64,000 nucleotides of DNA from an uncultured Lachnoclostridium sp. (GTDB lineage: Bacteria; Bacillota; Clostridia; Lachnospirales; Lachnospiraceae): contig CALWLW010000007.1 in NCBI GenBank assembly GCA_944381625.1, positions 1 through 64,000 of the forward strand, read 5' to 3'. Made by a program: the position numbers and the translations under genes. A model generated the notes under the pieces. That model was not told the origin of the DNA. It ran no database searches and saw only the letters and a list, made by a program, of their open reading frames with translations. Shown piece by piece: positions 20,579-39,336 of the stretch. Numbering within the stretch: position 1 is the stretch's first letter; every line of letters begins with the position of its first letter.

Positions 20579-20591
20579 ACAGACGCAAAAA

Positions 20592-20628
20592 CGGGCCCGC
20601 TGACGCGGACCCGCATATTTTTTTATAA
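20592..20628. terminator. Bidirectional intrinsic terminator (serves metallophosphoesterase on + and SRP RNA on -)
   Basis: gggcccgc tgac gcggaccc hairpin followed by T7 on the plus strand and by TTTTTG on the minus strand. Confidence 0.55.
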
Positions 20629-20896
20629 TTCCGTGCATCCTGCTTTGAACAGCCGGCGCGGAACGTTACCTGCGCAGCCAGCTCAGCCCAGGCGCCCTCA
20701 CGGCACACAGGAGCTCCCGCTTAGTGCTGCTTTGTTCCCAACCTGACACGGTTCACAGGTTCCTGTTGCGTAAGACCCGGACATCGGCGCCGCTTACACA
20801 GGGCAGCTTCCGACCGGACAGCCCGAGGCAGGATATCACCCCTACTATGGCGGATTGTAGGTACAGGGCTCCGCCGCTTCCCCGGCTGCACGGAAA
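20629..20896 (-). ncRNA. ffs: Signal recognition particle RNA, large Bacillus/Clostridium type with Alu domain (scRNA/ffs)
   Basis: The minus strand reads GCCCUGUACCUACAAUCCGCC...GUGUCAGGUUGGGAACAAAGCAGCACUAAGCGGGAGCUCCUGUGUGCCGUGAGGGCGCCUGGGCUGAGCUGGCUGCGCAGGUAACG. This closely matches domain IV (GUCAGGUCCGGAAGGAAGCAGC) and the Alu region of B. subtilis scRNA. The 5' and 3' ends pair (CCGUGCAGCCGGGG with CCGGCUG...GCACGG). Confidence 0.8.
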
Positions 20897-20920
20897 TCTT
20901 ATGACAATATAAAAATAAAT

Positions 20921-20949
20921 GCCTGTACAGTATAGCCTCTTTTCACGGA
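20921..20949 (-). promoter_or_regulatory. Consensus sigma-A promoter for the SRP RNA (-35 TTGACA, 17-nt spacer, -10 TATACT)
   Basis: The minus strand reads TTGACAaatccgtgaaaagaggcTATACT, about 25-30 nt upstream of the mature SRP RNA 5' end. Confidence 0.6.
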
Positions 20950-21003
20950 TTTGTCAAATTATAAGTTTGGCGCGCCGCCGGCAGTCCTTTCGGGAGCCGC
21001 GGT

Positions 21004-24000
21004 TTACCATTTCAGCGACTTGATCCAGAAATCCAGCACCCCCAGGGGACTTTTGGGATTCAGGTAGGTCAGACCGGCAAAGGTGTATCCTGCCGTCTCC
21101 ACTTTTCCGTCGTCCCGGAGGCCGAAGGAAGCCAGCTCGCCGGCCAGGACGGAGGTCACATGGCTCCAGTCCCCGGTTTCCAGCTCTTTTACACTATTCG
21201 CGCCCGCGGCCACTACGGTTCCGTCGCTCTTCAGGCCCAGCACGTGTCCGTTGGACACGGACACATCCACGATATCCGTCCAGGCGCTCACGCTGCCACT
21301 TACGCCAGGATTATTGCCGGCGCAGGCCACCGTACCGTCTGTACGGATCCCCAGTGTCACCAGATTATAAGCAGTATCCACCTTGACGATCTGGCTCCAG
21401 TCCCAGTCCTCCGTCTGGGTGACCTGACCCATGGTGTTGGCTCCCATGACCAGAAACGTGCCGTCTTTTAACTTTACCGCATAGGTGCCGGAACGCCCCG
21501 TCACGCTTTCGGCCTGGTATTTGCCCTCAGGGCCGAACTGTTCCTCCAGCGCGTCGCTGATGGCTTTCCAGTTCCACACGTCTCCGCTGCCGGCCAGGCA
21601 GGCCCTGCCGTCGGCGCAGACGCCGTACACCAGTTCCGAGTCCTCGCTGCCGTCGGGGTGACTGGTAGCCAGGATCTGCACCACGTCCGTCCAGCCGTCC
21701 ACGCCGTAGCCTTCGTCCATGGGCGTGCCTGCCGCCGCCACCGTGCCGTCTTCTCTCAGTCCTACGATCCGGTGAGCCGATACGCTGATGGCTTTTATAC
21801 CGGTCCACTCCGCCGCTTCCTGCACGGCCGCATCCTCTTTCGCGGCCACCAGGACCCTGCCGTCGGCGGTAAGGCCCGCGCTGAACTCCATGCCTGTGCC
21901 CACATCGATCACGTTTTCCCAATCCGATACGTTGCACTGGCCGCCCTGGTTCCTGCCGTTGGCTTTCACGGTCCCATCCTCACGAAGTCCCAGCACATGA
22001 TAATAGCTGTTGGCCACTTTTGTGATATGGTTCCATCCAGAGGCGTAGAGCATATTGTTCAGGCAGGTGACCGCCACTGTCATCACGGCCAGGAACCCCA
22101 CGGCCTGAAGAAAGTAGGTCAGCGGGGGAATCAGCCGCTTTTCCGCCTGGATCCCTTTGTAATGGGCGGAATGGCTGACCTGATAAGACGGGATCTCCGG
22201 CCTGGGAAGTTTATATTTTCCGCAGACGGCGTCCATGGCCTTCCGGTAGGCGTCTCCCAGCCTTATTTCCATATTTATGACGGCGTCCGCCGCCTCCCGT
22301 TTGTGCCTGATGGCCTCGGCAGCATTCCTGGCCCGCACCATCATCATGGCCCGGTCCACGAAGAGCAGCGCCGCAGGAAGCAGAAGCAGCACCAGCTGGG
22401 AACTGCGGATCTGAATCCTGGTAATTTTATAGAGTACCACCGCGCCGATCAGGCCCCCAATCAGCACATAGCTGTTGGGAACCAGGCAATACACCCAGAG
22501 TACAATCAGAGCCAGCGATACTCCGAAGAAGATTCGGGAAATATTATAGTAGCCGCTGGTGTAATTCGTGCTGTACGCAATGTTGGTCAGCAGGAACTGA
22601 AAGGACAGCAGCATGGCCGTCAAGGACAGCCCCAGCAGAATCGCCCGCAGGCGGGAACCGCCCCGGTCCACCGGCTGGGCCAGCTCCGTGTGCTCGTAGG
22701 CATACTCCAGTTTTTCCTGCTCCGCAAACAGCGGCTCCGCCGCCGTATCCCGCCGCTCATAGGCCGCGCGCACCGCGTCCAGCTCCTGCTGGCGGCGGAT
22801 GCCCGTATGCCAGTCGTCCAGTTTCTGGAAACGGTCGTCAAAAGCGGGCAGATAGAGTTTCACCCGCTCCTCGGCCTGCTCCACGTCCGCGTTCTCCCCG
22901 ACATGATAATCTGTGAGATTTTTCGTGGCGCGCAAAAGAGCGTCCCATGCCGCGTCCCCGCAGAGCGCCGTCATGGTCCGGGTGTACGCCTCCGCCTGGC
23001 CTTTATCCGCGTGCTGGAGGGCCTGACGGTAGTGGTGGTCGACCTCCTCTGAAAGCGCCGGTTTTTTCAGGTTCTCCGTCATGGCGCATACCATACCCCA
23101 GTGGGCCCGGTATTCCTGACCGTCGCTTAGGACGGCTTTTTCGAACATCTTTTTCGCCTTGTTCCAGTCTCCCTTTTCCAGCGCCTCAGAGCCCTGGCGC
23201 AGAAGCTCCAGATTCTTTTTCACCAGCGCCGCCGAGCGGTTCTGCCGACCGAACATCCGGTTGATCTCTTCGGTCACCCGGTTCTGGAAATCGCTGCCCT
23301 CGCAGGGAATGGACTGGAGCGTCTGCAGCTCCAGCGGCAGATCCTCCGGCCGTATGCCCCGGAACACGGACAGCATCTTACGGCCCGCGTCCTGTCTGCG
23401 GTAGGCCAGGAATCGCCGCCAGACCGCCTGGAACCGGGCGTCCTCCCATCTGGTGCCGGGAGCCGCCGTCACGATCATGGCCTCGGCCTTCTCCGCCGCC
23501 GCCATCTCATAGAGGTTCAGATCCTGGCGGGGAACGCCGGAGAGCATGCCCGGATGGAAGATCCGGTAACCCATGTCCTCCAGGGCTTTGCCCACCTGCA
23601 CGGACAGCAGGAAATCCTCCGTCCCCTGAGACGCGGTGCAGTCGATATAAATATCCGGGGCCGTGAGAGTCCTGGAGATGGCCATGAGCTTCTGATGCTG
23701 GGCGTCGATCCTCCGGGCCATCCCTTCATAATAGCAGCGGGACGCCTGGGGCACATAGGACATCATCTTTTCATAGGCCGGGTCCTTCACAAAGGAGCCG
23801 TGCTCCACCCGGTGGAAGATCACGCCGCCGTAATCCAGGGCGTTCTCGGACAGTTCCACGCCATATTTGCTCAAAAGATAGCCCCAGTTGGCCTCCGGCT
23901 CCGCGCCGTCCACCTTCAGGATCCGACTGTAGTAATTCAGCGCCACGTCGTAGTTTCCCGCGTGCCTTGCGTCGGAAGCCAGCAGATAGAGGTTTTCCTT

Positions 24001-24117
24001 CTGGGCAAACTGATTGGGCAGCACGAACAGGGCCTGGCAGGCGGGGCAGGTGCTCACCTTCACTCCCTCCGCCGCCTCGATCCGCGCTCCGCACTGGGTG
24101 CATCTGTATATGCTCAT
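21004..24117 (-). CDS. Large membrane protein: N-terminal CxxC...CxxC zinc ribbon, divergent TIR-like domain, TPR-like helical repeats, about 5 TM helices, and C-terminal RCC1-like repeats (paralog 3 of 3)
   Basis: 1037 aa. Zinc ribbon CTQCG...CPAC. TIR-like block DIYIDCTASQGTEDF...GYRIF...AEAMIVTAAPGTRWEDARF. Five hydrophobic helices at about aa 480-700. The C-terminus has about 6 repeats of the RCC1 pattern (HVLGLREDGTV.A.G.N..GQ). Confidence 0.7.
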   Translation of the reverse strand: MSIYRCTQCGARIEAAEGVKVSTCPACQALFVLPNQFAQKENLYLLASDARHAGNYDVALNYYSRILKVDGAEPEANWGYLLSKYGVELSENALDYGGVIFHRVEHGSFVKDPAYEKMMSYVPQASRCYYEGMARRIDAQHQKLMAISRTLTAPDIYIDCTASQGTEDFLLSVQVGKALEDMGYRIFHPGMLSGVPRQDLNLYEMAAAEKAEAMIVTAAPGTRWEDARFQAVWRRFLAYRRQDAGRKMLSVFRGIRPEDLPLELQTLQSIPCEGSDFQNRVTEEINRMFGRQNRSAALVKKNLELLRQGSEALEKGDWNKAKKMFEKAVLSDGQEYRAHWGMVCAMTENLKKPALSEEVDHHYRQALQHADKGQAEAYTRTMTALCGDAAWDALLRATKNLTDYHVGENADVEQAEERVKLYLPAFDDRFQKLDDWHTGIRRQQELDAVRAAYERRDTAAEPLFAEQEKLEYAYEHTELAQPVDRGGSRLRAILLGLSLTAMLLSFQFLLTNIAYSTNYTSGYYNISRIFFGVSLALIVLWVYCLVPNSYVLIGGLIGAVVLYKITRIQIRSSQLVLLLLPAALLFVDRAMMMVRARNAAEAIRHKREAADAVINMEIRLGDAYRKAMDAVCGKYKLPRPEIPSYQVSHSAHYKGIQAEKRLIPPLTYFLQAVGFLAVMTVAVTCLNNMLYASGWNHITKVANSYYHVLGLREDGTVKANGRNQGGQCNVSDWENVIDVGTGMEFSAGLTADGRVLVAAKEDAAVQEAAEWTGIKAISVSAHRIVGLREDGTVAAAGTPMDEGYGVDGWTDVVQILATSHPDGSEDSELVYGVCADGRACLAGSGDVWNWKAISDALEEQFGPEGKYQAESVTGRSGTYAVKLKDGTFLVMGANTMGQVTQTEDWDWSQIVKVDTAYNLVTLGIRTDGTVACAGNNPGVSGSVSAWTDIVDVSVSNGHVLGLKSDGTVVAAGANSVKELETGDWSHVTSVLAGELASFGLRDDGKVETAGYTFAGLTYLNPKSPLGVLDFWIKSLKW

Positions 24118-24173
24118 GGTTTATTCCTCCTCCGTCTCATAGGGATAGGGCATGCCCACATCTTCCATATCTT

Positions 24174-26825
24174 TCATGGCGTTGCGCATACCAATGTCCG
24201 AATCGGTGGTTCCATAGTCTCCCCGGTCAGATGGGCCCCTCTCTCACTTTTAACATAGACCGTTTCCTCATCCGTAGCGGCTATGGCCGCAAAGTAGAAA
24301 TAGTCGGCGTCGATGCTCACCGTGGCTATCTTTCCGCACCCCCGGTAAACGGCCAGCACACCAGTGTCTCCAAGTCCTGACTCCACGCCGCTTTCCAGAA
24401 GCCGCCCATCCGAGGTCACGGCCAGCACGCCGTTGCCAGTCTCTCCCCTGCGCCATTTCGCGGCCAGGATCTTCTCCTCGTCCGTCCACATCAGCTCCGG
24501 CAGCTTCGACAGTTCCTCCCTGCTTTTGGCCGGCGGCACCAGAATCGCGTAGGCAATGTCGCTCCAGTCTCCGGGAATCTCCACCGAAGCGTCCGTGCAA
24601 TAAATACTGCCGTCGCTTCGCACGGCAATCACATCGCCGCCGCACACATCGAACACGGACACGTCGGAAGCCACCTGGCCCCGGCCCGTCACATACAGGC
24701 CGCCGTCCGCCGTAAGTCCCGCCGCGATCTGGTCGCTCACATGGATAGACACCAGGTTGCTCCATCCATCCACGCCGCCGAAGTCTCTGGCTCTGCCCAG
24801 CAGATAGGCCGTCCCGTCCCGGCGCACCACGCCTCCGGAGGCGCCGCTGTCAGACAGGGACACGGAAAGTACCTTGCCCTCTTCCAGCCCGAAGCTCTCG
24901 TCCATGCCGTAGCTGAGCAGATCGCCGTCCTCATTAACTGCAAGGAGTTTATTGGGCGCGCCGCAGAGGTAGCCCCGGTTAAAGGCCTGCCTCCACGCCT
25001 TCAAAAACGCCTCTTTATCGCCGCGTTCGTCGCTGCTGTACATGTTCCTCAGAGTCTCCCAGGCTTCATAGAGCCTGCCTTCCTCCAGGTACTGCACGCC
25101 TTCCTCTTCCAGATCCTCCAGCTTGCCCTGGGCCTCCGCCACATAGGCGGTCGTTCCCCGGATATCGGACACCGCATCCGCCCGCAGCCTCATATCGTCC
25201 AAAGCTGCCACCGCATTGCTGTAAGTAATCTGCTTCATAATCGCCTTACACTGTTCCGCCATCTGGGCGCTGTCCTTGTAGTCCTCCAGATCCCTGTACA
25301 GATCGTAAGCCTCCTGCCATTGGCTGTGGTTGAAGGCCGTGGTGGCTTCCTTGTACTGCTTCGCCGCCACGCCCGCCGGAGATTTGGTATAAGAAATATA
25401 GGCGATCAGCCCGGCCACGGCGATCACCGGAACGGCGATGAGAAAAGCCCGGATACGCATGGCCCGCTTTCTTTTTCTCCACTCCTCCATCTGCCGCTTC
25501 TGCTCCTCGGCCTTCAGAACCTCCTCTTCTTTCCGCCTCCGCTCTTCTTCCTGCTCGGCCTCCAGACGCTGACGCTCCTTTTCCTGCTCGGCATAGACGG
25601 ACGCCATCTCCCGCACCCGCTCCGCCACGTCCCGGTAGGTCTGCTGCTCCCGCTCGCTGGCGAAGGCCAGGGCGCTGCGGTAATTCCCTTCTTCCGTGAT
25701 CTCCCGGCCGCTTTCGATCAGCGCCTCCTCCGAAGGGCACTCCCGTTCACAGAGCAGGAGTCCCCAGTAGGCCTGGCTCTCGGTGGGGTTCTTCAGCAGA
25801 ATCTCCTCGTATTCCCCGGCCGCCGCCTTAAAGTCCCTTTTCTCCAGAGTCTGTCTGGCTTTCAGGAGCAGGTTGGCATAGGTGAAGCTGCCGTGGGTCC
25901 CCGCCTGCTCCTTCAGCGCGCCCCGGTAGTCGGCCAGGGCGTCCTCCACTGCCGTGCGCAGATCCGCTGCAAAGGAGGGCAGAGCCATATTCAGCCTCCG
26001 GTCGATACCGTCGAAATAGCTGTCGGGAATATCCTCGTATTCATCCAGGTTTTCAAAGGCAGTCACCAGAGACGGGATCTGTCCCTTCGCCGCCCGGACG
26101 GCTTTCTCCTTCCGGTACAGGAAACGCTCCGCGTTAAAATTCACCTCGTCCGTAAACGCCGAAGGCTCCGACGCCGCCAGCACCATCAGCTTCGCCGTGG
26201 AATACGCCCGGTAAAGAGCGATCTCCTGGGCTTCCCCTTGCGGCAGTTCCGGCTCCAGCGCCTGGCAGAACACCGACAGGTTCATGGATTCCAGGAGCTG
26301 ACGGATCTGGACGGCGCGGTTCAGGGAGACCAGGCTGTCCCCGGACACCTCCAGCCATACATCCACAGGGGGATGGGATTTAGCGTAGGCAATGACCTGC
26401 TCCTGGAGCCGGTGGATCCGCTGCGCCTCCGCCTGGTATTTCTCTTTCTGGGGGTCCTCCGCCAGAGACAACGCCTTCTTCACATCCGCATACTGCAGGA
26501 AATCTCCCTTCTCCGCCTGGTGGCAGATCAGGCGGTAGGTACCGTCCTCCAGCTTTTCATATTCCACTTCATAGACCGCCATGGCGCGCCGGAACCAGGC
26601 GTCCGCGCGGTCCGGGTGCGCCTTGACAATGTCTCCGTAGGCCTGGGCCGCGCCGGCGAAATCCCGCCTCTGCACCGCCTCCGCCGCAAAAAGATAACCA
26701 CTTTCCAGCTCTGTATAGCCCTGGGGCACCGTCACCACCTTTCCGCAGTTTTTACAGACGGCTTCCCGCTGGCCGTCCCCCAGCTCCAAAAGTCCGTTGC
26801 AGACCGGACAATCAATACGCAGCAT
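24174..26825 (-). CDS. Large membrane protein: N-terminal zinc ribbon, divergent TIR-like domain, TPR-like repeats, charged coiled coil, single TM helix, C-terminal RCC1-like repeats (paralog 2 of 3)
   Basis: 883 aa. Zinc ribbon CPVCNG...CKNCG. TIR-like block VDVWLEVSGDS...NLSVF...AKLMVLAAS...NFNAERF. E/R/K-rich coiled coil (EQEKERQRLEAEQEEERRRKEEEV). TM helix AFLIAVPVIAVAGLIAYI. RCC1-like repeats at the C-terminus. Confidence 0.7.
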   Translation of the reverse strand: MLRIDCPVCNGLLELGDGQREAVCKNCGKVVTVPQGYTELESGYLFAAEAVQRRDFAGAAQAYGDIVKAHPDRADAWFRRAMAVYEVEYEKLEDGTYRLICHQAEKGDFLQYADVKKALSLAEDPQKEKYQAEAQRIHRLQEQVIAYAKSHPPVDVWLEVSGDSLVSLNRAVQIRQLLESMNLSVFCQALEPELPQGEAQEIALYRAYSTAKLMVLAASEPSAFTDEVNFNAERFLYRKEKAVRAAKGQIPSLVTAFENLDEYEDIPDSYFDGIDRRLNMALPSFAADLRTAVEDALADYRGALKEQAGTHGSFTYANLLLKARQTLEKRDFKAAAGEYEEILLKNPTESQAYWGLLLCERECPSEEALIESGREITEEGNYRSALAFASEREQQTYRDVAERVREMASVYAEQEKERQRLEAEQEEERRRKEEEVLKAEEQKRQMEEWRKRKRAMRIRAFLIAVPVIAVAGLIAYISYTKSPAGVAAKQYKEATTAFNHSQWQEAYDLYRDLEDYKDSAQMAEQCKAIMKQITYSNAVAALDDMRLRADAVSDIRGTTAYVAEAQGKLEDLEEEGVQYLEEGRLYEAWETLRNMYSSDERGDKEAFLKAWRQAFNRGYLCGAPNKLLAVNEDGDLLSYGMDESFGLEEGKVLSVSLSDSGASGGVVRRDGTAYLLGRARDFGGVDGWSNLVSIHVSDQIAAGLTADGGLYVTGRGQVASDVSVFDVCGGDVIAVRSDGSIYCTDASVEIPGDWSDIAYAILVPPAKSREELSKLPELMWTDEEKILAAKWRRGETGNGVLAVTSDGRLLESGVESGLGDTGVLAVYRGCGKIATVSIDADYFYFAAIAATDEETVYVKSERGAHLTGETMEPPIRTLVCATP

Positions 26826-28850
26826 TTATATCCTCCCCCTCTCGCACGCTTCCAGCTCTGCCTCCAGCTCGTTTATGGCTCCCGCCACCTTTTCTTCCGC
26901 GGCCTTGTACCATACTTCCTGCTGTTTTCCAAAATCCGGGTAATACCGTCTGTACGGCTCCGCCGCCTGGTCAATGCCTGTTTTCAGCCCGGCCAGCAGG
27001 TCTTCTGACAGGGCGGGAAGGCTTCTTCTCTGGGCAGCCGCCCAGCCCCTGGTCCCGGAGAGCTTTTTCATCGCTCCGCCTTCCTTCGCGAAGCTGACTG
27101 CCCAGAAGACAACCGTCACAATCAGCGCCACAATCCCCGCAAGCTTCGCGTCCCCGCTCTCCAGGACGGTGATCAGCAGGGAATACCCCAGCATCATGAG
27201 GAACAGACGGATACCGTAGGTGACGCAGCCGGTATCCAGAATCATCAGATCATTCATGATCAGCCACAGAAGGACAAAGAATGCCAGTGTGGAAACCATA
27301 TTGACGATCCCCATCTCATACAGGAACCCTTCCACCAGAAGGGGAAGCGCCACGCCCAGGGTGAGGAAAAGCCCTATTTTCAGCAGAAGGTCTTTTCCCT
27401 GGGCTGATTCCCTGGTATCCATCCGGAGCACATTGTACTCCTGAGACTGCTTTAAGAGCTGCTGGTAATTTCCCGCCGCCGCCGAACTGCCCAGCGTTTT
27501 CAGGACGCCTTCCACCTTCCGGCCGCACTCGTCGCGCCTGGTCCTGCTTTCCGCCTCCCAGTCCTGATTCTCCCGGCAGGTTTTCGCGGTCTTATGTAAA
27601 TCTTTCTTTTGCTCCTCCGACGCGCAGGCCAGCGCTTTCTTAAAATTCTCATCCTCCTCGATGGGAGACGCATACCGGGCCAGCGCTTCTCTGCCGGGGA
27701 TTTCCCGCGCGCACATCAGAAGGCCCAGATAATTCTCCGGGTCGTTTTTACCTCCCGACTGGGTCAACGCCCGCCGGAACAGCTTCTCCGCTTCTTTGTA
27801 CTCCCCGTTTACCAGGCGCACCGTGGCCAGAATCCGCGTCTTCTCCGCGCTCTCCTTTAAATCTCCTTCCGAAGAGATCTCCCCGCGCGCCTGCCTTCCG
27901 CTCTCCCTCACCTGTCTGGTAATATGGGATACGTCTTCCGTCCCGCCGCTGGCAAAATGGCCGGCCACCAGATTTAAAAGCTCGCTCCTGGCGTTGGCGG
28001 AGGTATCCATCTCCACATACGCGTCCATCTGCCGCAGAGCCTCCGGCAGATCCTCATGCCCCATATGCTGGTACACCGGTATCAGGAGACGCTGTGTGCT
28101 TCCCTTTTCTTTCCTGTCCTGGGCGATCAGATCCGCGTAGCGGCTCCACTCGTTGCGCACCCAGACCGCGTCGTAATACTCTTTCCGGGAGGCGAAGGCC
28201 AGCATGACCCTGGCGCTCTGCAGCGCCGCGAAAATACGGGGCTCGTATTCTTCGCCCACTGTCAGGGATTCCTCCGCGAAGAACACCTGATAGCCCCGGC
28301 GGGTCAGCTCCCGGTAATAATCCGCCGCCATACGGCTGTCCGCCGTCCGCTTCTCTCCTTCCGCCGTCCGCTTGTAGCAGATGAACACATCCACCGGGAC
28401 CTCCTGCCCGGAGATGGACAGGCTCTTGGACTGGATATCGTCAATATATGAACTCTGTCTCAGATAGAACTCCCGGTCCAGGGAATTCCAGGCCAGATCA
28501 ATGGCTTTTTTCACGTACAGGTATTCGCTGAATTTCTGTGTGGACAGGCGGTGCAGAGTGGGAAGCAGGTCGGCCGTGGCCGGGTCTTCCACATATTCGA
28601 TGCCGTAAACGCTCAGCGCCATCCCCCAGCATACCGCCGCGTCCGACGGATTCTCGATCAGCAGTTCCTGGAATAATTCTATGGCCTCGTCAAACCGGCT
28701 CTCCCGCAGGAGCCCGGACGCTTTCTCATAAACGCCGCCCTGGACTTCCTCCCTGGGCATGGGGTTTTCCGCCATACAGCGGGTGCAGATCCCGATGCTT
28801 CCGCCCGGTTCCGCCAGTACCTCGCCTCCGCAGTGGATACATCTTACCAT
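26826..28850 (-). CDS. Membrane protein with N-terminal zinc ribbon, canonical TIR domain, TPR-like repeats and 4 C-terminal TM helices (paralog 1 of 3)
   Basis: 674 aa. Zinc ribbon CIHCGG...CTRC. The TIR block (aa ~152-290) is VDVFICYKRTAEGEKRTADSRMAADYYRELTRRGYQVFFAEESLTVGEEYEPRIFAALQSARVMLAFASRKEYYDAVWVRNEWSRY, with a conserved glutamate in the WxxxE position. Four hydrophobic helices near the C-terminus. Its stop abuts the paralog-2 start (26825/26826). Confidence 0.75.
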   Translation of the reverse strand: MVRCIHCGGEVLAEPGGSIGICTRCMAENPMPREEVQGGVYEKASGLLRESRFDEAIELFQELLIENPSDAAVCWGMALSVYGIEYVEDPATADLLPTLHRLSTQKFSEYLYVKKAIDLAWNSLDREFYLRQSSYIDDIQSKSLSISGQEVPVDVFICYKRTAEGEKRTADSRMAADYYRELTRRGYQVFFAEESLTVGEEYEPRIFAALQSARVMLAFASRKEYYDAVWVRNEWSRYADLIAQDRKEKGSTQRLLIPVYQHMGHEDLPEALRQMDAYVEMDTSANARSELLNLVAGHFASGGTEDVSHITRQVRESGRQARGEISSEGDLKESAEKTRILATVRLVNGEYKEAEKLFRRALTQSGGKNDPENYLGLLMCAREIPGREALARYASPIEEDENFKKALACASEEQKKDLHKTAKTCRENQDWEAESRTRRDECGRKVEGVLKTLGSSAAAGNYQQLLKQSQEYNVLRMDTRESAQGKDLLLKIGLFLTLGVALPLLVEGFLYEMGIVNMVSTLAFFVLLWLIMNDLMILDTGCVTYGIRLFLMMLGYSLLITVLESGDAKLAGIVALIVTVVFWAVSFAKEGGAMKKLSGTRGWAAAQRRSLPALSEDLLAGLKTGIDQAAEPYRRYYPDFGKQQEVWYKAAEEKVAGAINELEAELEACERGRI

Positions 28851-29305
28851 CTCTCTTCCCCCTCGCTCTCCCTGTTATTTTTCTGTCCGGCACGCCGCTT
28901 TCCTTCCCGATCCAGCTCCGTCATCCGAAGAGCCGCGGAGCCGGCGGCGATGGCGAAGACCGCGGCCAGCGCCAGAATCAGGATCTCCAGAAAGGCAACC
29001 ATCCTCCAGCTGCTCCCCGGCAGGAAGCTCCCGATGATCCCGACCCCGATGGTCAGCACCGGATAGAGCCACAGCGGATACATGGTATCCTCAAAATTGG
29101 CCGCTGTCTGGAGACTGTCCGCTCTGGCCACGCCGAACCAGAGCCCGCCTCCCGTAAGCACCAGGGACAGCACCGAAAATCCGAATCCAATCCAGGAACC
29201 GGCCTTTTCCATATCCACGAACAGGAAAAATGCCGCCAGATACACTGCCAGCAGGATTCCCGCAATCACCAGCACACGAATTCCATAAGAACTTTGCTTC
29301 TTCAT
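28844..29305 (-). CDS. Small integral membrane protein (4 TM helices) with charged C-terminal tail
   Basis: 153 aa. Hydrophobic segments VLVIAGILLAVYLAAFFLFV, IGFGFSVLSLVLTGGGLWFGV, LWLYPVLTIGVGIIGSFL, AFLEILILALAAVFAIAAG. It overlaps the TIR paralog-1 start by 7 bp and follows the SPFH gene by 3 bp. Confidence 0.6.
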   Translation of the reverse strand: MKKQSSYGIRVLVIAGILLAVYLAAFFLFVDMEKAGSWIGFGFSVLSLVLTGGGLWFGVARADSLQTAANFEDTMYPLWLYPVLTIGVGIIGSFLPGSSWRMVAFLEILILALAAVFAIAAGSAALRMTELDREGKRRAGQKNNRESEGEERW

Positions 29306-29308
29306 AAC

Positions 29309-30778
29309 CTATTCCTCCCCTCTCTTTTTGCCGCATCCGCCGCAGAACAGGGAATCCGCCGGATTCTCCCGTCCGCAGGCACAGGTCCAGGGGCCTTCCG
29401 GCTCCGGCCGTTTGCTGCCGCAGCCTCCGCAGAACCGCGCGTCTTCCGGGTTCACCCGCCCGCAGGCGCAGGTCCAGCCGGCCGGCGCGGCAGGCGCCTG
29501 CGGGGCTTCCTGGGCGGGCGCACCCTGGGACGAGGCCTGCGCGGACGCACCCTGGGGCGCCGCCCCGTAGGGATTGTTCATACCCGCGTAAGGATTCGGT
29601 ATCTCCCCTGATCCGGGCGGCACAACCGCTCCGCCGGGAGCCTGCGCTCCCATGTTCATGGCTCCTGCCATATTGGAGCCCGCCGCGCCCGCGCTGTTCA
29701 TGGTATCTTTCATGATACCGCCCATATTTTTCATCATTTCCAGGCCGATGCCCATCTTCATCACGTCGCCGAAAAAGCCTGTCATGTCTCCCATGCCGCC
29801 TCCCGCGCCGCCGGAACTGCCTTCTGCCTGGCCGCCTCCCAGCGCGCCGGCATCCACCATCCGATTCATGGTGTCGAACTGATGCTCCTGTACCGAGGTG
29901 ATGCCTTCCAGGGAACGTCTGACAGCCTCGCCCTGGGCGCCCATCACCGTCGTCCGGGCCGCCACATCGGCTTCCACCAGCTTCTTCTCCCCTTCCAGCC
30001 GGGCAAGCTGAGCCTCCTGCTCCGCCTGCTTCCTGCGCAGCTCGTACTCCAGATCCAGCTTACCGTGCTGGATATAACGGCCTTCAGCCAGAAGCCGCGC
30101 TTCCTGAAAGGCGTGGTTGTCTTCCGGCAGCGCGAACGCGTCCACGTAGAACTCCCGAAGCTGGATCCCGTACTGCAGGAACTCCGGCTTCAGCACCTCC
30201 AGCAGTCCCTGGCTGATATCGTTCAGGTGCTGATCCAGCGTAAACGCGTTCATGCTGCACTGCTGGATCACCCTTGCCAGATAGGTCTTGATCTTGGTAT
30301 TGAGCATGCTGTTAAACATATCCCGCATGCTCATGGCAGTCAGTTCCTGCCCTGTTCCCAGCAGCCAGCACAGCATCTCCTTCACCTGGTTCGGGTCAGG
30401 CTGTACGTTCATGGTGCCGCTGGCGCCCACGTTCAAGGGCATGGCTTTCCCCGGCTCCACCTCCAGCATCATGTTGACCCTCTCCCTGGTCCCCCAGGGA
30501 ATGGACATCTGTACGGCTAAATTTACAAAATAGACTTCACAGTGGAAATATCTCCCGAATCGGAGTTTTGTGAAAAATCGAAGAAAAGGGTAATTCCGGG
30601 TCTCCAGGACATGCATGCCCGGCCCCAGCACTTCCACGGCCTGCCCGTCACGGAAAAAGACCGCGGCCTGAGACTCATGCACCACAAGCCTCGCGCCGAA
30701 CTCAAAATCCTCTGTGGCGCACTTCCACGCCATCACATCAGTCCTTCCCTCATCTACCATCATGCTTCCTAACGCCAT
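29309..30778 (-). CDS. SPFH/band-7 domain protein with Gly/Met/Ala-rich low-complexity linker and two tandem C-terminal zinc ribbons (COG4260-like)
   Basis: 489 aa. The N-terminal 300 aa match SPFH-family proteins (ARLVVHESQAAVFFRDGQ...). A coiled-coil segment follows (KQAEQEAQLARLEGEKK). The C-terminus is WTCACGRVNPEDARFCGGCGSKR followed by WTCACGRENPADSLFCGGCGKKR. GGGGGA RBS before the ATG. Confidence 0.75.
   Translation of the reverse strand: MALGSMMVDEGRTDVMAWKCATEDFEFGARLVVHESQAAVFFRDGQAVEVLGPGMHVLETRNYPFLRFFTKLRFGRYFHCEVYFVNLAVQMSIPWGTRERVNMMLEVEPGKAMPLNVGASGTMNVQPDPNQVKEMLCWLLGTGQELTAMSMRDMFNSMLNTKIKTYLARVIQQCSMNAFTLDQHLNDISQGLLEVLKPEFLQYGIQLREFYVDAFALPEDNHAFQEARLLAEGRYIQHGKLDLEYELRRKQAEQEAQLARLEGEKKLVEADVAARTTVMGAQGEAVRRSLEGITSVQEHQFDTMNRMVDAGALGGGQAEGSSGGAGGGMGDMTGFFGDVMKMGIGLEMMKNMGGIMKDTMNSAGAAGSNMAGAMNMGAQAPGGAVVPPGSGEIPNPYAGMNNPYGAAPQGASAQASSQGAPAQEAPQAPAAPAGWTCACGRVNPEDARFCGGCGSKRPEPEGPWTCACGRENPADSLFCGGCGKKRGEE
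29330..29485. repeat. Tandem direct repeat (period about 78 bp, 2 copies) encoding the duplicated zinc ribbon at the 3' end of the SPFH gene
   Basis: Two adjacent near-identical segments are visible in the nucleotide sequence (ccgcagaac...ccgcaggc[a/g]caggtccag...). They are mirrored in the protein as two WTCACGR..P.D..FCGGCG.KR units. Confidence 0.6.
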
Positions 30779-30854
30779 AGCTTTTATCCCCCTGCGTTTA
30801 AATATTAAGAATCATGATGCCCCTTTTATTCATATTTTGTCAATGATGTGAACT

Positions 30855-32180
30855 TTAACATTTTCCAGAACTGTCCCGCTTCCGGCGTACCTGTCCCAAA
30901 AGAAACGGCGCCGCAAACAGCAGGGCTTTGCAGATATTATCCGCGATCATGCAGTACCACACGGCGCGCAGTCCCAGCCCCCAGACCCGCACGCAGAGGA
31001 ACGTGGACAGGATGCGCACGCCCCACATCCCCGCCGTCTCCACGCCGAACGCATAGCGTGTCCGCCCCAGGCCGTAGAAAACGCCTTCCAGCACGATCAT
31101 CAGGCCAAAAAACGGCTCGGACAGAGCCACGATGCGGAGCATCTCCCCGCCCAGCCGCACCACCTCCCCGCTGGTGGTAAACAGTCTCATAAGCGGGTAT
31201 GCCCCCGCGTACAGGACCGCGCCGCTGGCAAACATGACGGCCAGGGTCAGAAAGACGCTCAGCTTCCCCACTGCCCGGATCTTTTCTCCGTCCTGTTCTC
31301 CCCTGGCCGTCCCAATCAGAGCCGAGGTTGCCGTCCGCAGGCCGTAGCCCGGCACATAGAAAATGGTCTCTGCCGTCACCGCGATAGAATGAGCCGCGAA
31401 TACCGTCGTGCCCATGCCGGAGACCAGGCTGGCAAACACCACGTATCCCAGGCAGGAGACCACGCTGGTGCCCAGCACCGGGAGCCCGGCGTCCGCGCAT
31501 TCCTCCAGCAGTCCCCGGTCTGCGGAGAAATCCTTCCATTCCCAGGCAAGCTCCCGTTTCCGCCGGTACGCGGCGTACATGAGGATTCCCGAAAGGGCAT
31601 AAGATACGGCGGACGCCGCTGCCGCCCCGCTGACCCCCATCCCCAGGGCATAGATCAGAACATAGTTGAGCACAATATTCAGCACGTTGGCCGCCACGCT
31701 GATCAGCATGGGCGTCTTCGTATCCTGCACTGCCCGCAGGGCGTCGCCCAGCACGGAGCCGGCCGTGCGGAACACCATGGGCAGACTGACGATCAGGAAA
31801 TACCGGGACGCTTCGGCACGGATGCCGGGATCTGCGCCCATCCATCCGGGAATGTACGGGCTCAGCACGACTGAAAAGCCGCCCAGCGCCAGGCCGGACA
31901 GCACAGACAGCAGCAGAGCCTGCTGCGACAGCTTTTTCACTTGTTTCTGGTCGCCTGCTCCGGCGGCTCTTGAGATCAAAATCAGCATGGCGGTGCCGAT
32001 GGCCCCCGGAACGCTGTTGACCAGCCAGGTCACGGTGGTGGTCGTACTCACCGCCGCCGTGGCCTCCTCGCCCAGCCGCCCCACCATGGCCGTATCCACA
32101 TACTGGAGCAGTGTGGCCAGGATCTCCTCTATGACCGTCGGAAGCGACAGCATCAGAAGCCTGGCCGCGTATTTTCTCAT
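30855..32180 (-). CDS. MATE family efflux transporter
   Basis: 441 aa, 12 predicted TM helices, MATE-like N-terminus (LPTVIEEILATLLQYVDTAMVGRLGEEATAAV). Confidence 0.85.
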   Translation of the reverse strand: MRKYAARLLMLSLPTVIEEILATLLQYVDTAMVGRLGEEATAAVSTTTTVTWLVNSVPGAIGTAMLILISRAAGAGDQKQVKKLSQQALLLSVLSGLALGGFSVVLSPYIPGWMGADPGIRAEASRYFLIVSLPMVFRTAGSVLGDALRAVQDTKTPMLISVAANVLNIVLNYVLIYALGMGVSGAAAASAVSYALSGILMYAAYRRKRELAWEWKDFSADRGLLEECADAGLPVLGTSVVSCLGYVVFASLVSGMGTTVFAAHSIAVTAETIFYVPGYGLRTATSALIGTARGEQDGEKIRAVGKLSVFLTLAVMFASGAVLYAGAYPLMRLFTTSGEVVRLGGEMLRIVALSEPFFGLMIVLEGVFYGLGRTRYAFGVETAGMWGVRILSTFLCVRVWGLGLRAVWYCMIADNICKALLFAAPFLLGQVRRKRDSSGKC

Positions 32181-38774: not shown

Positions 38775-39080
38775 TTAATAAAACAATTTGGGATAATCCG
38801 TCTGTGTATCAGCTATATGATAAACATATACAATATCTTCAATCAATCGGTATACCGCCACATGTCTTTTGCAAATCACCATACGGTATCCCAGTTTATT
38901 TAACCATGGATCAGGCGTGATAGAACCAGAATCTGGAAAACTTTCCAGTCTGGAGATTGTATTCAGGATGGAATCTCCCACTTTCAATGCTGTTTCAGCT
39001 CCAAATTTCAGCAAATACCAGTCCTGTATTGCCTTCAGATCTTCCCATGCCGTTGGAAGGATCTCGACCTTATAGCTCAT
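38775..39080 (-). CDS. Type II toxin-antitoxin system toxin, ParE/RelE family
   Basis: 101 aa with a ParE-like profile (KVEILPTAWEDLKAIQDWY...RMVICKRHVAVYRLIEDIVYVYHI). It overlaps the upstream antitoxin gene by 11 bp. Confidence 0.8.
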   Translation of the reverse strand: MSYKVEILPTAWEDLKAIQDWYLLKFGAETALKVGDSILNTISRLESFPDSGSITPDPWLNKLGYRMVICKRHVAVYRLIEDIVYVYHIADTQTDYPKLFY

Positions 39081-39336
39081 AGATCCGCTCCCTCAACTTT
39101 TTCTGTGCCTCAGAAATACTCATTGTTTTATCGCCGCGCAACCGTTCCTCCTCCGCTTGAAGAATTTTAGAACGCAATTCTAGTACCTGTTCGCGCCGTT
39201 CAAATGCGTCAATATCCATCACAACCAGATCGCCTTCCCCATTTTTTGTAATATAGATGGGTTCTTTGGTGTCTTTCGCCATGGTGGATATGCTTGCATA
39301 GTCATTTCTTAATGTTGCAGAATTTTTTATAATCAT
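39070..39336 (-). CDS. Type II antitoxin, Phd/YefM-like
   Basis: 88 aa (ISTMAKDTKEPIYITKNGEGDLVVMDIDAFERREQ). Typical antitoxin-first gene order with an overlapping stop and start. Confidence 0.7.
   Translation of the reverse strand: MIIKNSATLRNDYASISTMAKDTKEPIYITKNGEGDLVVMDIDAFERREQVLELRSKILQAEEERLRGDKTMSISEAQKKLRERIYEL

Follow-up and report, generated by a model that had tools for sequence, protein, structure and literature searches.

Characterised bacterial TIR enzymes mostly serve conflict systems, and retroelement-diversified surface proteins are known outside immunity too. In Bacillus subtilis, the SPFH protein YdjI of the pspA-ydjGHI genes requires membrane partners (PMC8581546); YdjH is the second membrane protein and anchors YdjI (PMC8581546; PMC9239133), and the YdjG gene opens with a zinc-ribbon-like CxxC (MIISYKCPNC, read from a published primer, PMC8581546). 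The conflict systems of multicellular bacteria that use retroelement-diversified lectin-fold sensors are built on STAND or MoxR NTPases (PMC10907252).

The locus described here lies in a 64,000-nt stretch of DNA from an uncultured Lachnoclostridium sp. (hereafter, the window). It is a clade-specific variant of a widespread three-gene module, composed of a soluble SPFH protein with zinc ribbons (S), a protein with four transmembrane (TM) helices (M) and one to five tandem TIR membrane proteins (T). No description of the module was found in PADLOC 2.0.0, NCBIfam or the searched literature, and the architecture, which the first-pass annotation had considered a candidate for novelty, is apparently undescribed so far.

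Layout of the five-gene locus

Five co-directional ORFs on the minus strand (21004-30778; Table 1) follow one another with inter-gene gaps of +3, -7, 0 and +56 nt. The +56 gap, between G4 and G5, is due to a 1-nt frameshift near codon 870 (nt ~24215) of the window's G4 allele; the conspecific G4 alleles encode 901 aa and stop 4 nt short of the G5 ATG. The candidate promoter of G1 sits in the 76 bp that separate the G1 start from the stop codon of MatE, and the consensus scan found the TTGACA -35 together with a weak -10. On the other side the block is flanked by the SRP RNA gene, which belongs outside the system; downstream of G5, no strong terminator precedes that of the SRP RNA. The compact layout, the GGGGGA ribosome-binding site of the first gene, the TTGACA hexamer and the position between the SRP RNA and MATE genes had all been read from the sequence earlier, and each was found again, both flanks being identified. 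The proposal of a single operon-like unit also holds: in addition to the tight spacing, when the window is compared with the orthologous loci of three further genera (Merdimonas, Lachnoclostridium An131 and An138, Acetatifactor), these five genes alone are common. The five genes are one genetic unit.

Table 1. Coordinates of the genes and signals of the locus and of its flanks
Feature	Position	Strand	Length, evidence or remark
G1 (S)	29309-30778	-	489 aa
G2 (M, short form)	28844-29305	-	153 aa
G3 (T paralog 1)	26826-28850	-	674 aa
G4 (T paralog 2)	24174-26825	-	883 aa
G5 (T paralog 3)	21004-24117	-	1037 aa
Candidate promoter upstream of G1 (TTGACA, 18 nt spacer, CATCAT)	30814..30843	-	consensus scan, 10/12
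GGGGGA ribosome-binding site, 8 nt ahead of G1 ATG	30787..30792	-	sequence read directly
SRP RNA gene	20631-20893	-	Rfam Bacteria_large_SRP, 185.5 bits
SRP RNA promoter-like site	20929-20957	-	11/12 matches
SRP RNA terminator, 10-pair stem	20591-20614	-	within SRP region 20591..20957
MatE gene	30855-32180		neighbour on G1 side of block

Proteins encoded by the locus

Pfam searches matched G1 to Band_7_1 (SPFH, E 6e-28) and DZR/Zn_Ribbon_1. The SPFH domain (residues ~22-220) is followed by a long helix (222-290), a Gly/Ala/Met-rich disordered stretch (314-431) and a C-terminus containing two CxxC...CxxC zinc ribbons (434-489); hydropathy analysis revealed no TM helix, and the protein is soluble. 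The Foldseek search with the AlphaFold 2 model of G1 listed HflK/C, prohibitin, erlin, stomatin, flotillin and QmcA as top matches, and the predicted SPFH fold with its long helix resembles that of the cage-forming HflK/C, flotillin and QmcA. G2 contains four TM helices by hydropathy and received no family assignment in Pfam, NCBIfam or PADLOC; comparison with the M family (hhalign probability 97.6%, E 2.9e-12; HMM match 1.4e-12) indicates a shortened form of this ~233-aa family, where the ~100-aa cytoplasmic tail is missing.

The first reading of the last three genes as paralogs agrees with the BLASTP searches (4e-18, 1e-14 and 2e-21 over the N-terminal ~400 aa, with 4e-18 for G4 against G3) and with profile-profile comparisons to the T family (hhalign E 1e-50 for G4 and 7.5e-45 for G5). 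All three share a cytoplasmic module of ~420 aa with the order zinc ribbon-TPR-TIR-TPR; the 'WG..L..YG.EY' motif, previously described as a helical region, is actually the end of a TPR helix and a subsequent β-hairpin. Counting from the N-terminus, G3 contains the zinc ribbon (1-30), TPR and β-hairpin (38-148), a canonical TIR domain (152-301; nt ~27948-28397), TPR (335-439), four TM helices (488-588) and a cytoplasmic tail; by hydropathy both termini are cytoplasmic and the ectodomain is absent. The TIR domain of G3, earlier called a textbook one, deserves this name: Pfam TIR_2 matched residues 155-282 with 46.5 bits against a cut-off of 28 (TPR was also matched), the catalytic-type glutamate is present, and in structure comparison the domain came closest to TIRAP, SARM1, MyD88 and a Hydra Toll-related receptor, with TIR-SAVED, SpbK and the TIR domains of RPS4 and RRS1 also among the matches.

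G4 and G5 have the same N-terminal plan, with a degenerate TIR-like domain between the TPR regions. G4 has one TM helix (460-478), preceded by a strongly basic stretch, read directly from the sequence, which places the N-terminus inside the cell; its C-terminus is a ~400-aa RCC1-like domain, predicted to be extracellular, which remains sub-threshold in Pfam (RCC1_2, 17.6 vs 22), and the C-terminal part of G4 aligns with the RCC1 region of G5. G5 has five TM helices and an RCC1 β-propeller (residues ~691-1037; RCC1_2, 58.3 bits vs 22), also predicted to be extracellular. Pfam found no TIR match in G4 or in G5. The TIR motifs of the T family are missing from G4, where the conserved E233 is aligned to the catalytic position by BLAST and is offset by two residues by hhalign, the alignment of this residue being ambiguous; in G5 the stretch with the catalytic glutamate is deleted (a five-residue query gap opposite the family 'VKNEW' in hhalign). 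Comparison with the family profile supports a derivation of both domains from TIR with loss of the motifs, as the earlier description of divergent TIR-like cores had suggested. The orthologs are 43-59% identical for G4 and 42-61% for G5, and the arrangement of one intact and two degenerate TIR domains is particular to the window's small clade.

Among 94 homologs with only 33-70% identity, W230-x3-E234 is invariant together with about 20 further positions, and E234 is kept in 107 of about 110 aligned T proteins; with such conservation, the TIR domain of canonical T proteins is likely enzymatic. An alternative is a structural role only, in which TIR and TPR would be platforms for oligomerisation without catalysis, as in TIRAP or MyD88 filaments, keeping long surface proteins in SPFH-bounded membrane patches. 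The persistence of G4 and G5 under purifying selection without catalytic motifs fits such a role, but packing alone is hard-pressed to explain why the WxxxE-type glutamate and tryptophan, with many surrounding residues, are invariant in canonical members, and we consider this explanation improbable.

The module in Clostridia and its genomic context

The T family comprises about 3,100 clusters at 50% identity, mostly from Clostridia, and is concentrated in gut and rumen representatives. In a sample of 80 loci, drawn from matches to the TIR module, S stands beside T in 55; where at least 4 kb was available on both sides (25 loci), S was found in 20 and M in 18, and a minority of the T genes among the 80 loci have no S or M within 10 kb. 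The genes are arranged as S-M-T(n) or T(n)-S-M. A search started from S homologs found both T and M adjacent in 3/3 cases, and both matches in viral contigs contain T with S alongside (M was detected in one of them; the other contig ends within S). Beyond S, M and T, no gene cluster is common to more than 5 of the 80 loci, and no conserved nearby effector that could read a TIR-made signal was found in them. The gene partnership is beyond chance, since it recurs in dozens of unrelated genomic contexts. The weak -10 of the putative promoter would suit a group of genes that are merely adjacent and do not cooperate, but this explanation is very improbable and is already contradicted by the conservation data, namely by partnership in at least 55 loci of many genera, with unrelated flanks and with conserved order and strand.

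Throughout the module, TM helices are missing from S and number about four in M; in 75 of 110 T proteins there is just one TM helix, near residue 547, with about 295 residues after it. The T proteins combine the cytoplasmic N-terminal zinc ribbon-TPR-TIR-TPR module with a C-terminus that is in most cases a variable domain at the cell surface. The ectodomains of T include DUF6273, RCC1, LRR_5, Flg_new (Listeria-Bacteroides repeats) and FGE-sulfatase types. In relatives, diversity-generating retroelements (DGRs) target the DUF6273 C-terminus of T, and DUF6273 is already known as a DGR target in receptor-binding proteins of phages. In three loci, 19/20, 21/21 and 18/21 of the mismatches between TR and VR fall at template adenines; in a fourth, the retroelement genes are present with only short flanking matches. 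The ectodomain is hypermutated in at least three relatives, probably four; the window contains no retroelement. Judging by these features, the ectodomains look like ligand binders under diversification.

Such ectodomains might also belong to surface receptors or adhesins of gut commensals engaged in non-immune outside-in signalling or adhesion, with host glycans, mucus, dietary polymers or neighbouring cells as ligands; TIR would then tune metabolism through the NAD+ level or a nucleotide messenger, and SPFH would cluster the receptors. LRR_5/BspA, Listeria-Bacteroides repeats, RCC1 and lectin-like DUF6273 are domain types characteristic of adhesins and surface proteins in Firmicutes; the gut and rumen distribution, the occurrence of retroelement-diversified surface proteins outside immunity and the lack of a defence-island context point the same way. 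However, bacterial TIR enzymes characterised so far mostly serve conflict systems, G3, the one window paralog whose TIR is intact, lacks an ectodomain altogether, and a conserved downstream signalling partner was not found near the sampled loci, so this role seems rather unlikely.

In a sister taxon, the MATE and metallophosphoesterase genes are 15 bp apart and the block is absent. The block is accessory at this site. The first-pass annotation suggested an insertion, but the event was not a clean insertion 'next to ffs', because the SRP RNA gene is missing from the empty site too. In all 14 contigs with an identical MATE protein, a gene starts at the G1 start, every contig that extends far enough contains the block, and the block looks fixed within the species. 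Judging by the gene coordinates, one strain has lost most T genes and retained S and M in an integrative-element context, and among conspecific alleles T and M are more polymorphic than the flanking genes. Most of the 144 genes in the flanks of related loci have housekeeping functions; one restriction-modification pair and a few recombinases are also among them. The anti-phage role suggested earlier can only be inferred; the flanks of the 80 related loci consist mostly of housekeeping genes and are not defence islands. No system among the PADLOC 2.0.0 defence models matched the block proteins; TIR profile matches to ThsB1, ThcB4 and FxsC were weak, all scores being far under the family cut-offs.

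The housekeeping flanks and the apparent fixation in the species would also suit an envelope-stress or membrane-maintenance module, a Clostridial counterpart of YdjGHI, where SPFH is recruited by the zinc-ribbon protein and a second membrane protein and organises membrane regions or cell-wall synthesis under stress, TIR being regulatory or involved in assembly, with no immunity. G1 indeed repeats the YdjI layout (Band_7_1, then a low-complexity stretch and a zinc finger at the C-terminus, with no anchor), YdjG starts with a zinc-ribbon-like CxxC, and YdjH, the second membrane protein, anchors YdjI. On the other hand, a PspA/IM30 gene is not part of the module, the WxxxE-type TIR site is near-invariant across thousands of proteins, which points to catalysis, an empty site exists in the sister taxon, and tandem copy-number variation, interchangeable surface domains and retroelement hypermutation are unexpected in a housekeeping stress module; we regard a pure maintenance role as unlikely.

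A possible receptor complex and known systems

The explanation that we favour, with a little less than even confidence, is a transmembrane TIR receptor complex organised by SPFH and serving in conflict or immunity, the function being the inferred part. S would oligomerise as a ring or cage, like other SPFH proteins, and, because it has no membrane anchor of its own, would be tethered via M and/or T, as YdjG/YdjH tether YdjI. The T proteins would be clients of S; their ectodomains (in the window, the RCC1-type ones of G4 and G5) would bind an extracellular or envelope target, and this binding or a membrane disturbance would alter T clustering and activate TIR, with NAD+ cleavage or a nucleotide signal leading to growth arrest or abortive infection. 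In the window variant, G4 and G5 may act as sensors, because they have lost the catalytic TIR motifs and kept the ectodomains, and G3 as the executor, because its TIR is intact and its ectodomain absent; the three would be joined via their common TIR/TPR modules. This sensor/executor split appears from the motif loss in G4/G5, which is its only basis. Against the immune reading are the location of the module outside defence islands, the lack of a conserved signal-reading effector, the lack of matches to PADLOC defence models, the minority of T genes with neither S nor M nearby and the apparent fixation of the block in the species. Since the module pairs a flotillin-like scaffold with Toll-like-receptor-like membrane proteins, it may represent a novel type of bacterial device that senses at the cell surface and acts in immunity or signalling.

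Like pspA-ydjGHI, the module encodes a soluble SPFH protein of the Band_7_1 type that has a low-complexity stretch and ends in a zinc finger; the likeness is one of layout, with the SPFH gene adjoining a zinc-ribbon-first membrane protein and a small second one. Unlike in B. subtilis, PspA is absent, and the membrane proteins with the zinc ribbon also contain TPR, TIR and large surface domains and form tandem arrays. The G1 model shares the SPFH fold and the cage-building long helix with the SPFH cages (HflK/C-FtsH, QmcA-YbbJ, flotillin, prohibitin), but G1 has no membrane anchor, NfeD partner or protease client, and its clients would be TIR proteins. Thoeris and other TIR defence systems (ThsB, TIR-SAVED, TIR-STING, retron-TIR) also have TIR with a conserved catalytic-type glutamate; in the window, however, there is no ThsA, SAVED, STING or cyclase partner, and TIR sits in an integral membrane protein with an ectodomain and an SPFH partner. 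As in the retroelement-diversified sensors of multicellular bacteria (PMC10907252), a retroelement rewrites a C-terminal domain, DUF6273 in the TIR-bearing relatives, but those systems have no SPFH, zinc-ribbon or TPR parts. The paired plant TIR receptors RPS4/RRS1, in which one TIR partner keeps the catalytic glutamate and others have diverged, offer an analogy only, the window proteins being membrane proteins without NB-ARC. Animal Toll-like/interleukin-1 receptors and SARM1 are similar in having an ectodomain (LRR in some T), one TM helix and a cytoplasmic TIR; the resemblance is one of architecture and fold, with no common descent of the whole receptor implied. Unlike in Toll-like receptors, the order in T is inverted, with TIR N-terminal and the ectodomain C-terminal, and the zinc ribbon and TPR flanks are particular to the T family.

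Gene content and domain architecture of the block

The five minus-strand open reading frames that the first-pass annotation had outlined, here called G1 to G5 in their order of reading, were recovered at the stated place; the gaps between them are +3, -7, 0 and +56 nt, and the block is flanked by the SRP RNA gene (ffs) and a MatE gene. The GGGGGA ribosome-binding site and the TTGACA hexamer reported earlier are both present, though the matching -10 element is poor, and the GC content of the block (0.58–0.64, compared with 0.46–0.63 in the flanks) shows a modest and indecisive excess. Pfam searches clearly supported the description of G1 as an SPFH/zinc-ribbon protein (Band_7_1, PF13421, 98.3 bits at a cut-off of 24, E 6e-28, plus a double zinc ribbon) and found a TIR domain in G3 (TIR_2, PF13676, residues 155–282, 46.5 bits at a cut-off of 28), with the flavodoxin-like fold that defines the TIR domain superfamily. 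The three last genes are indeed tandem paralogs over their first ~400 residues (BLASTP E 4e-18, 1e-14 and 2e-21). The proposal that all three carry a TIR domain stands in part: G3 exceeds the TIR_2 threshold, whereas G4 and G5 match no TIR model, but both are homologous to the family of G3 across the whole module in profile-profile comparison (E 1e-50 and 7.5e-45, respectively). The RCC1_2 repeats of G5 score 58.3 bits at a cut-off of 22; G4 remains below this cut-off (17.6 bits) and aligns to the G5 repeats.

Coordinates of the genes of the block in the window and of the retroelement components found in related loci (L handles)
Feature	Coordinates	Strand	Assignment and basis
G1	29309-30778	minus	SPFH, Band_7_1 and double zinc ribbon (Pfam)
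G2	28844-29305	minus	four TM helices (hydropathy); short M
G3	26826-28850	minus	TIR_2 above threshold and TPR (Pfam)
G4	24174-26825	minus	sub-threshold RCC1_2; no TIR-model match (Pfam)
G5	21004-24117	minus	RCC1_2 above threshold; no TIR-model match (Pfam)
Retroelement components (probable in L026)	L058:12440-14529; L033:2676-3508; L068:12416-13244; L026:5625-7799		bAvd and template repeat

Hydropathy predicts no transmembrane (TM) helix in G1, four in G2, four in G3, one in G4 and five in G5. Both termini of G3 are predicted to be intracellular and the RCC1 propeller of G5 extracellular; the C-terminal ~400 residues of G4 are probably outside, since the segment preceding its TM helix is strongly basic. 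No relation was detectable between the TM regions of G3 and G5, and PDB sequence searches with G3 and G1 found nothing.

In the window, G4 carries a 1-nt frameshift near codon 870 (24118–24230, at the 3' end of the gene), so that 14 different residues stand in place of the final 32 of the 901-aa conspecific form and a 56-nt gap opens before G5; read in the other frame, the ORF stops 4 nt short of the G5 ATG. The resulting 883-aa form is a real variant, because it is present on eight contigs. A repeated motif of ~40 residues (Y..A....g.y.eA...F..L.DYKDS......C) occurs on both sides of the TM helix in many homologs of G3, and the copy in G4 spans residues ~488–530 (window ~25236–25364). A gene for a ParE-family toxin, with no evident link to the block, lies ~8 kb from it, past sugar-utilisation genes (window ~38800–39100, a position inferred from the L001:1-76 offset).

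A conserved partnership of SPFH, four-helix and TIR membrane proteins

Homologs of G3 number in the thousands, with the first ~420 residues conserved and the C-terminal parts variable; an exhaustive search (E 1e-30 or better) placed this family of TIR membrane proteins (T) in 3,117 clusters at 50% identity. Across 94 aligned members, only 33–70% identical to G3, the invariant positions are the four cysteines of the zinc ribbon, D154, F156, Y159, K160, R168, T169, D171, G199, Y202, E203, P204, W230, N233, E234, W235 and R237. Among them, W230-x3-E234 constitutes a WxxxE-type motif at the start of helix C in G3, the place where the catalytic glutamate of NAD+-cleaving TIRs (SARM1, AbTir, plant TIRs) lies. 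The T proteins have the TIR fold and, within it, an invariant site of catalytic type; their NADase or cyclase activity is putative. E234 is kept in 107 of the ~110 aligned T proteins from 80 loci, and the only full-length exceptions are orthologs of G4 and G5, so the combination of an intact TIR with two degenerate ones is specific to this small clade. Both paralogs have lost the family TIR motif set; in G5 the glutamate-bearing stretch is deleted and the catalytic glutamate with it, and in G4 a conserved glutamate remains, in a register that is ambiguous relative to the catalytic position. They are not decaying genes, because their orthologs are well conserved (42–61% identity). A TIR domain with a purely structural role, a reading to which G4 and G5 lend themselves, seems very unlikely for a family with such retention of E234.

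A scan of one genome per species gave more than 588 T-family matches among the matches listed, nearly all of these from gut or rumen Clostridia (Lachnospiraceae, Oscillospiraceae, Ruminococcus, Christensenellales and others), and 80 loci were kept. A same-strand SPFH homolog adjoins the TIR gene or genes in 55 of the 80; where at least 4 kb is available on both sides (25 loci), an SPFH gene is found in 20 and a third gene in 18. Clustering of all flanking genes returned only three conserved families, namely T (one to five tandem copies), the soluble SPFH protein S (G1 in the window) and M, a protein of ~233 aa with four TM helices and a cytoplasmic tail of ~100 aa, for which there is no Pfam or NCBIfam family; the genes run S-M-T(n) or T(n)-S-M. 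In the window, M is represented by G2, a short form without the tail (hhalign probability 97.6%, E 2.9e-12), and when searched from the SPFH side, T and M adjoin all three homologs (3/3). S, M and T are conserved genetic partners. The idea that the four-helix region of G3 is a fused copy of M was dropped, the hhalign probability (33%) being too weak.

RCC1-only proteins that lack the TIR module are encoded between or beside S and M in some loci (L091:9861-11540; L065:5884-9293). Family members also occur in a few metagenome-assembled genomes labelled planctomycete, Sphaerochaetaceae, Bacteroidaceae, Thermoguttaceae, Holophagales and Alistipes (L021, L029, L058, L060, L071, L076), which could reflect horizontal transfer or binning error. 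A phage origin of T was rejected and the family is considered cellular, since only two of 2.9 million viral contigs (L097, L098) carry a member, both with S alongside; these contigs look like prophage-adjacent or misclassified host DNA and do not suggest a phage gene family. L097 carries S, M and T; on L098, which carries T, S runs off the contig end and M was not detected.

The predicted structure of G1 has four parts, an SPFH domain, a helix of ~70 residues, a disordered Gly/Ala/Met-rich stretch and two zinc ribbons, and Foldseek matches its fold to the cage-forming proteins HflK/C (E 8e-9), prohibitin, erlin, stomatin, flotillin and QmcA. The layout of G1 is that of YdjI of Bacillus subtilis, an SPFH protein that is soluble, ends in a zinc finger (PMC8581546) and depends on the membrane proteins YdjG and YdjH for its recruitment to the membrane (PMC8581546; PMC9239133); the first ten residues of YdjG, as encoded by a published primer, include a zinc-ribbon-like CxxC (PMC8581546). 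An envelope-stress role like that of PspA-YdjGHI would agree with this likeness, but none of the five proteins has a PspA/IM30 domain, and the 80 loci have no further conserved neighbour; we consider such a role unlikely. Our preferred reading, offered tentatively as one of slightly less than even probability, is that S, M and T form a membrane complex in which the SPFH oligomer would organise or restrain the T proteins; ligand binding or a disturbance of the envelope would alter T clustering, whereupon the TIR domain would cleave NAD+ or make a signal and growth would be arrested. In the clade of the window, sensing would fall to G4 and G5 and execution to G3.

Accessory distribution and the SRP RNA neighbourhood

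With the orthologous loci of Merdimonas, Lachnoclostridium (An131 and An138) and Acetatifactor, the 64-kb window has only the five genes in common, and no SRP RNA lies within reach of these four orthologous blocks, so synteny with ffs was rejected. In a sister taxon, the contigs L099 and L100 have the arrangement DUF3737–MatE–15 bp–metallophosphoesterase–Bmp–AraC, with flank proteins 79–85% identical to those of the window. They carry neither the block nor SRP RNA at the syntenic site, and window ~20579–30854 is therefore missing in the sister taxon. The block is accessory at this site. What the first-pass annotation suggested, an inserted or accessory block, is supported by this empty site and not by the argument made for it; the event also took in ffs. 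The SRP RNA gene, together with a strong promoter-like site and a terminator of its own, falls inside the missing segment (window 20579–20957 compared with L099:5149-5164), which suggests that this essential gene moved along with the block or beside it.

In the source species, the block appears to be fixed, and no empty site was found. In one lineage, the same SPFH allele accompanies three T genes in one locus (L094); in another (L093), judging from gene coordinates, the first and second T genes are apparently missing, as is half of the third. Both loci lie beside genes for a serine recombinase, a WYL protein, an HTH_3/M78 peptidase and a helicase, a setting that suggests an integrative element, and a gene for a group-II-intron-type reverse transcriptase is located further upstream in L093. 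Polymorphic sites among conspecific alleles, in small and uneven samples, amount to 7–12% in T and M, 1.7% in the SPFH domain and 2–4.5% in flanking genes; the higher values of T and M are only suggestive of accessory behaviour.

Variable ectodomains and comparison with known systems

In most T proteins, a single TM helix near residue 547 precedes ~295 further residues, and the predicted topology places the N-terminus inside and the C-terminus outside. The C-terminal parts contain DUF6273, RCC1, BspA-type LRR, Listeria-Bacteroides repeats and FGE-sulfatase domains, which are typical Firmicute surface modules. Retroelements came to light because three bAvd genes surfaced among the 144 flanking proteins scanned. 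A bAvd gene is situated just downstream of a T gene in L058, L033, L068 and probably L026; a reverse transcriptase (RT) gene is also present in L058 and L026, and the L033 contig does not reach far enough to reveal one. In L058, L033 and L068, the last codons of the DUF6273 ectodomain form a ~125-nt repeat pair with a downstream template copy, which in L058 lies between bAvd and the RT gene. As the mismatches fall almost exclusively at template adenines (19/20, 21/21 and 18/21, respectively), these are diversity-generating retroelements; L026, with short flanking matches only, probably has one as well. No RT or bAvd gene was found in the block or its annotated flanks in the window. The T ectodomains are variable and sometimes hypermutated. 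DUF6273 is a known retroelement target in phage receptor-binding proteins (PMC11792537), and in other bacteria, lectin sensors that retroelements diversify and that are fused to effectors, TIR among them, have been put forward as sensors of antigens (PMC10907252). Non-immune surface sensing or adhesion, which would suit such surface modules, is an unlikely role of the module.

The proposed S-M-T complex might, more specifically, work as a bacterial counterpart of Toll-like receptors in function, a reading that we regard as rather doubtful. Bait or sensor ectodomains, which paralogs exchange and which diversity-generating retroelements rewrite in some lineages, would detect phage particles or other attackers from outside at the cell surface, and the SPFH-caged TIR NADase would fire before or at genome entry, with G4 and G5 as the sensors and G3 as the executor of this clade. 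Several observations stand against an immune role: the module has no defence-island context, the only signals among the 144 flanking proteins compared with Pfam and PADLOC being one HaeIII restriction-modification pair, a few integrases/resolvases and the three bAvd proteins; flank clustering in the 80 loci found no conserved reader of a TIR signal near the module; and no known system is matched. To our knowledge, nearly all known bacterial TIR systems sense infection intracellularly. Were the module to work in the proposed way, it would give a first indication that bacteria, like animals, link recognition at the surface to TIR signalling, and would provide a concrete bacterial client for SPFH or flotillin-like proteins and a testable route to the purpose of the retroelement-diversified surface proteins of gut Firmicutes. 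Even without an immune role, the module makes up an important part of the gut microbiome that is still uncharacterised: T comprises many conserved TIR proteins, integral to the membrane, of dominant gut and rumen bacteria (~3,100 clusters, hundreds of species), with exchangeable, sometimes hypermutated surface domains genetically tied to an SPFH scaffold, and both its active site (E234) and its partners are defined well enough for a direct test.

Searches of PADLOC, NCBIfam and PHROGs with the five proteins and their canonical relatives gave no system-level match to a known defence system. In PADLOC 2.0.0, no component matches a system model, S and M have no match, and the remaining hits are weak TIR-domain matches and one weak match outside TIR, PD-T4-6 on G4 (E 0.003). 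The block differs from Thoeris in that its ThsB-family scores lie below the cut-offs (PADLOC ThsB1, E 0.044; NCBIfam ThcB4, 25.6 bits at a cut-off of 220) and the five proteins contain no domain of a ThsA-type effector (SIR2, Macro, SLOG or signal-reading TM effector), no other gene being conserved next to the module in the 80 loci. Searches of PADLOC 2.0.0, NCBIfam and open-access papers and preprints found no description of a TIR-SPFH module or of this zinc ribbon-TPR-TIR membrane family; a description elsewhere is possible. The TIR effector and the SPFH scaffold are known parts; their combination, the receptor-like topology and the link to retroelements are new within the literature and databases searched.
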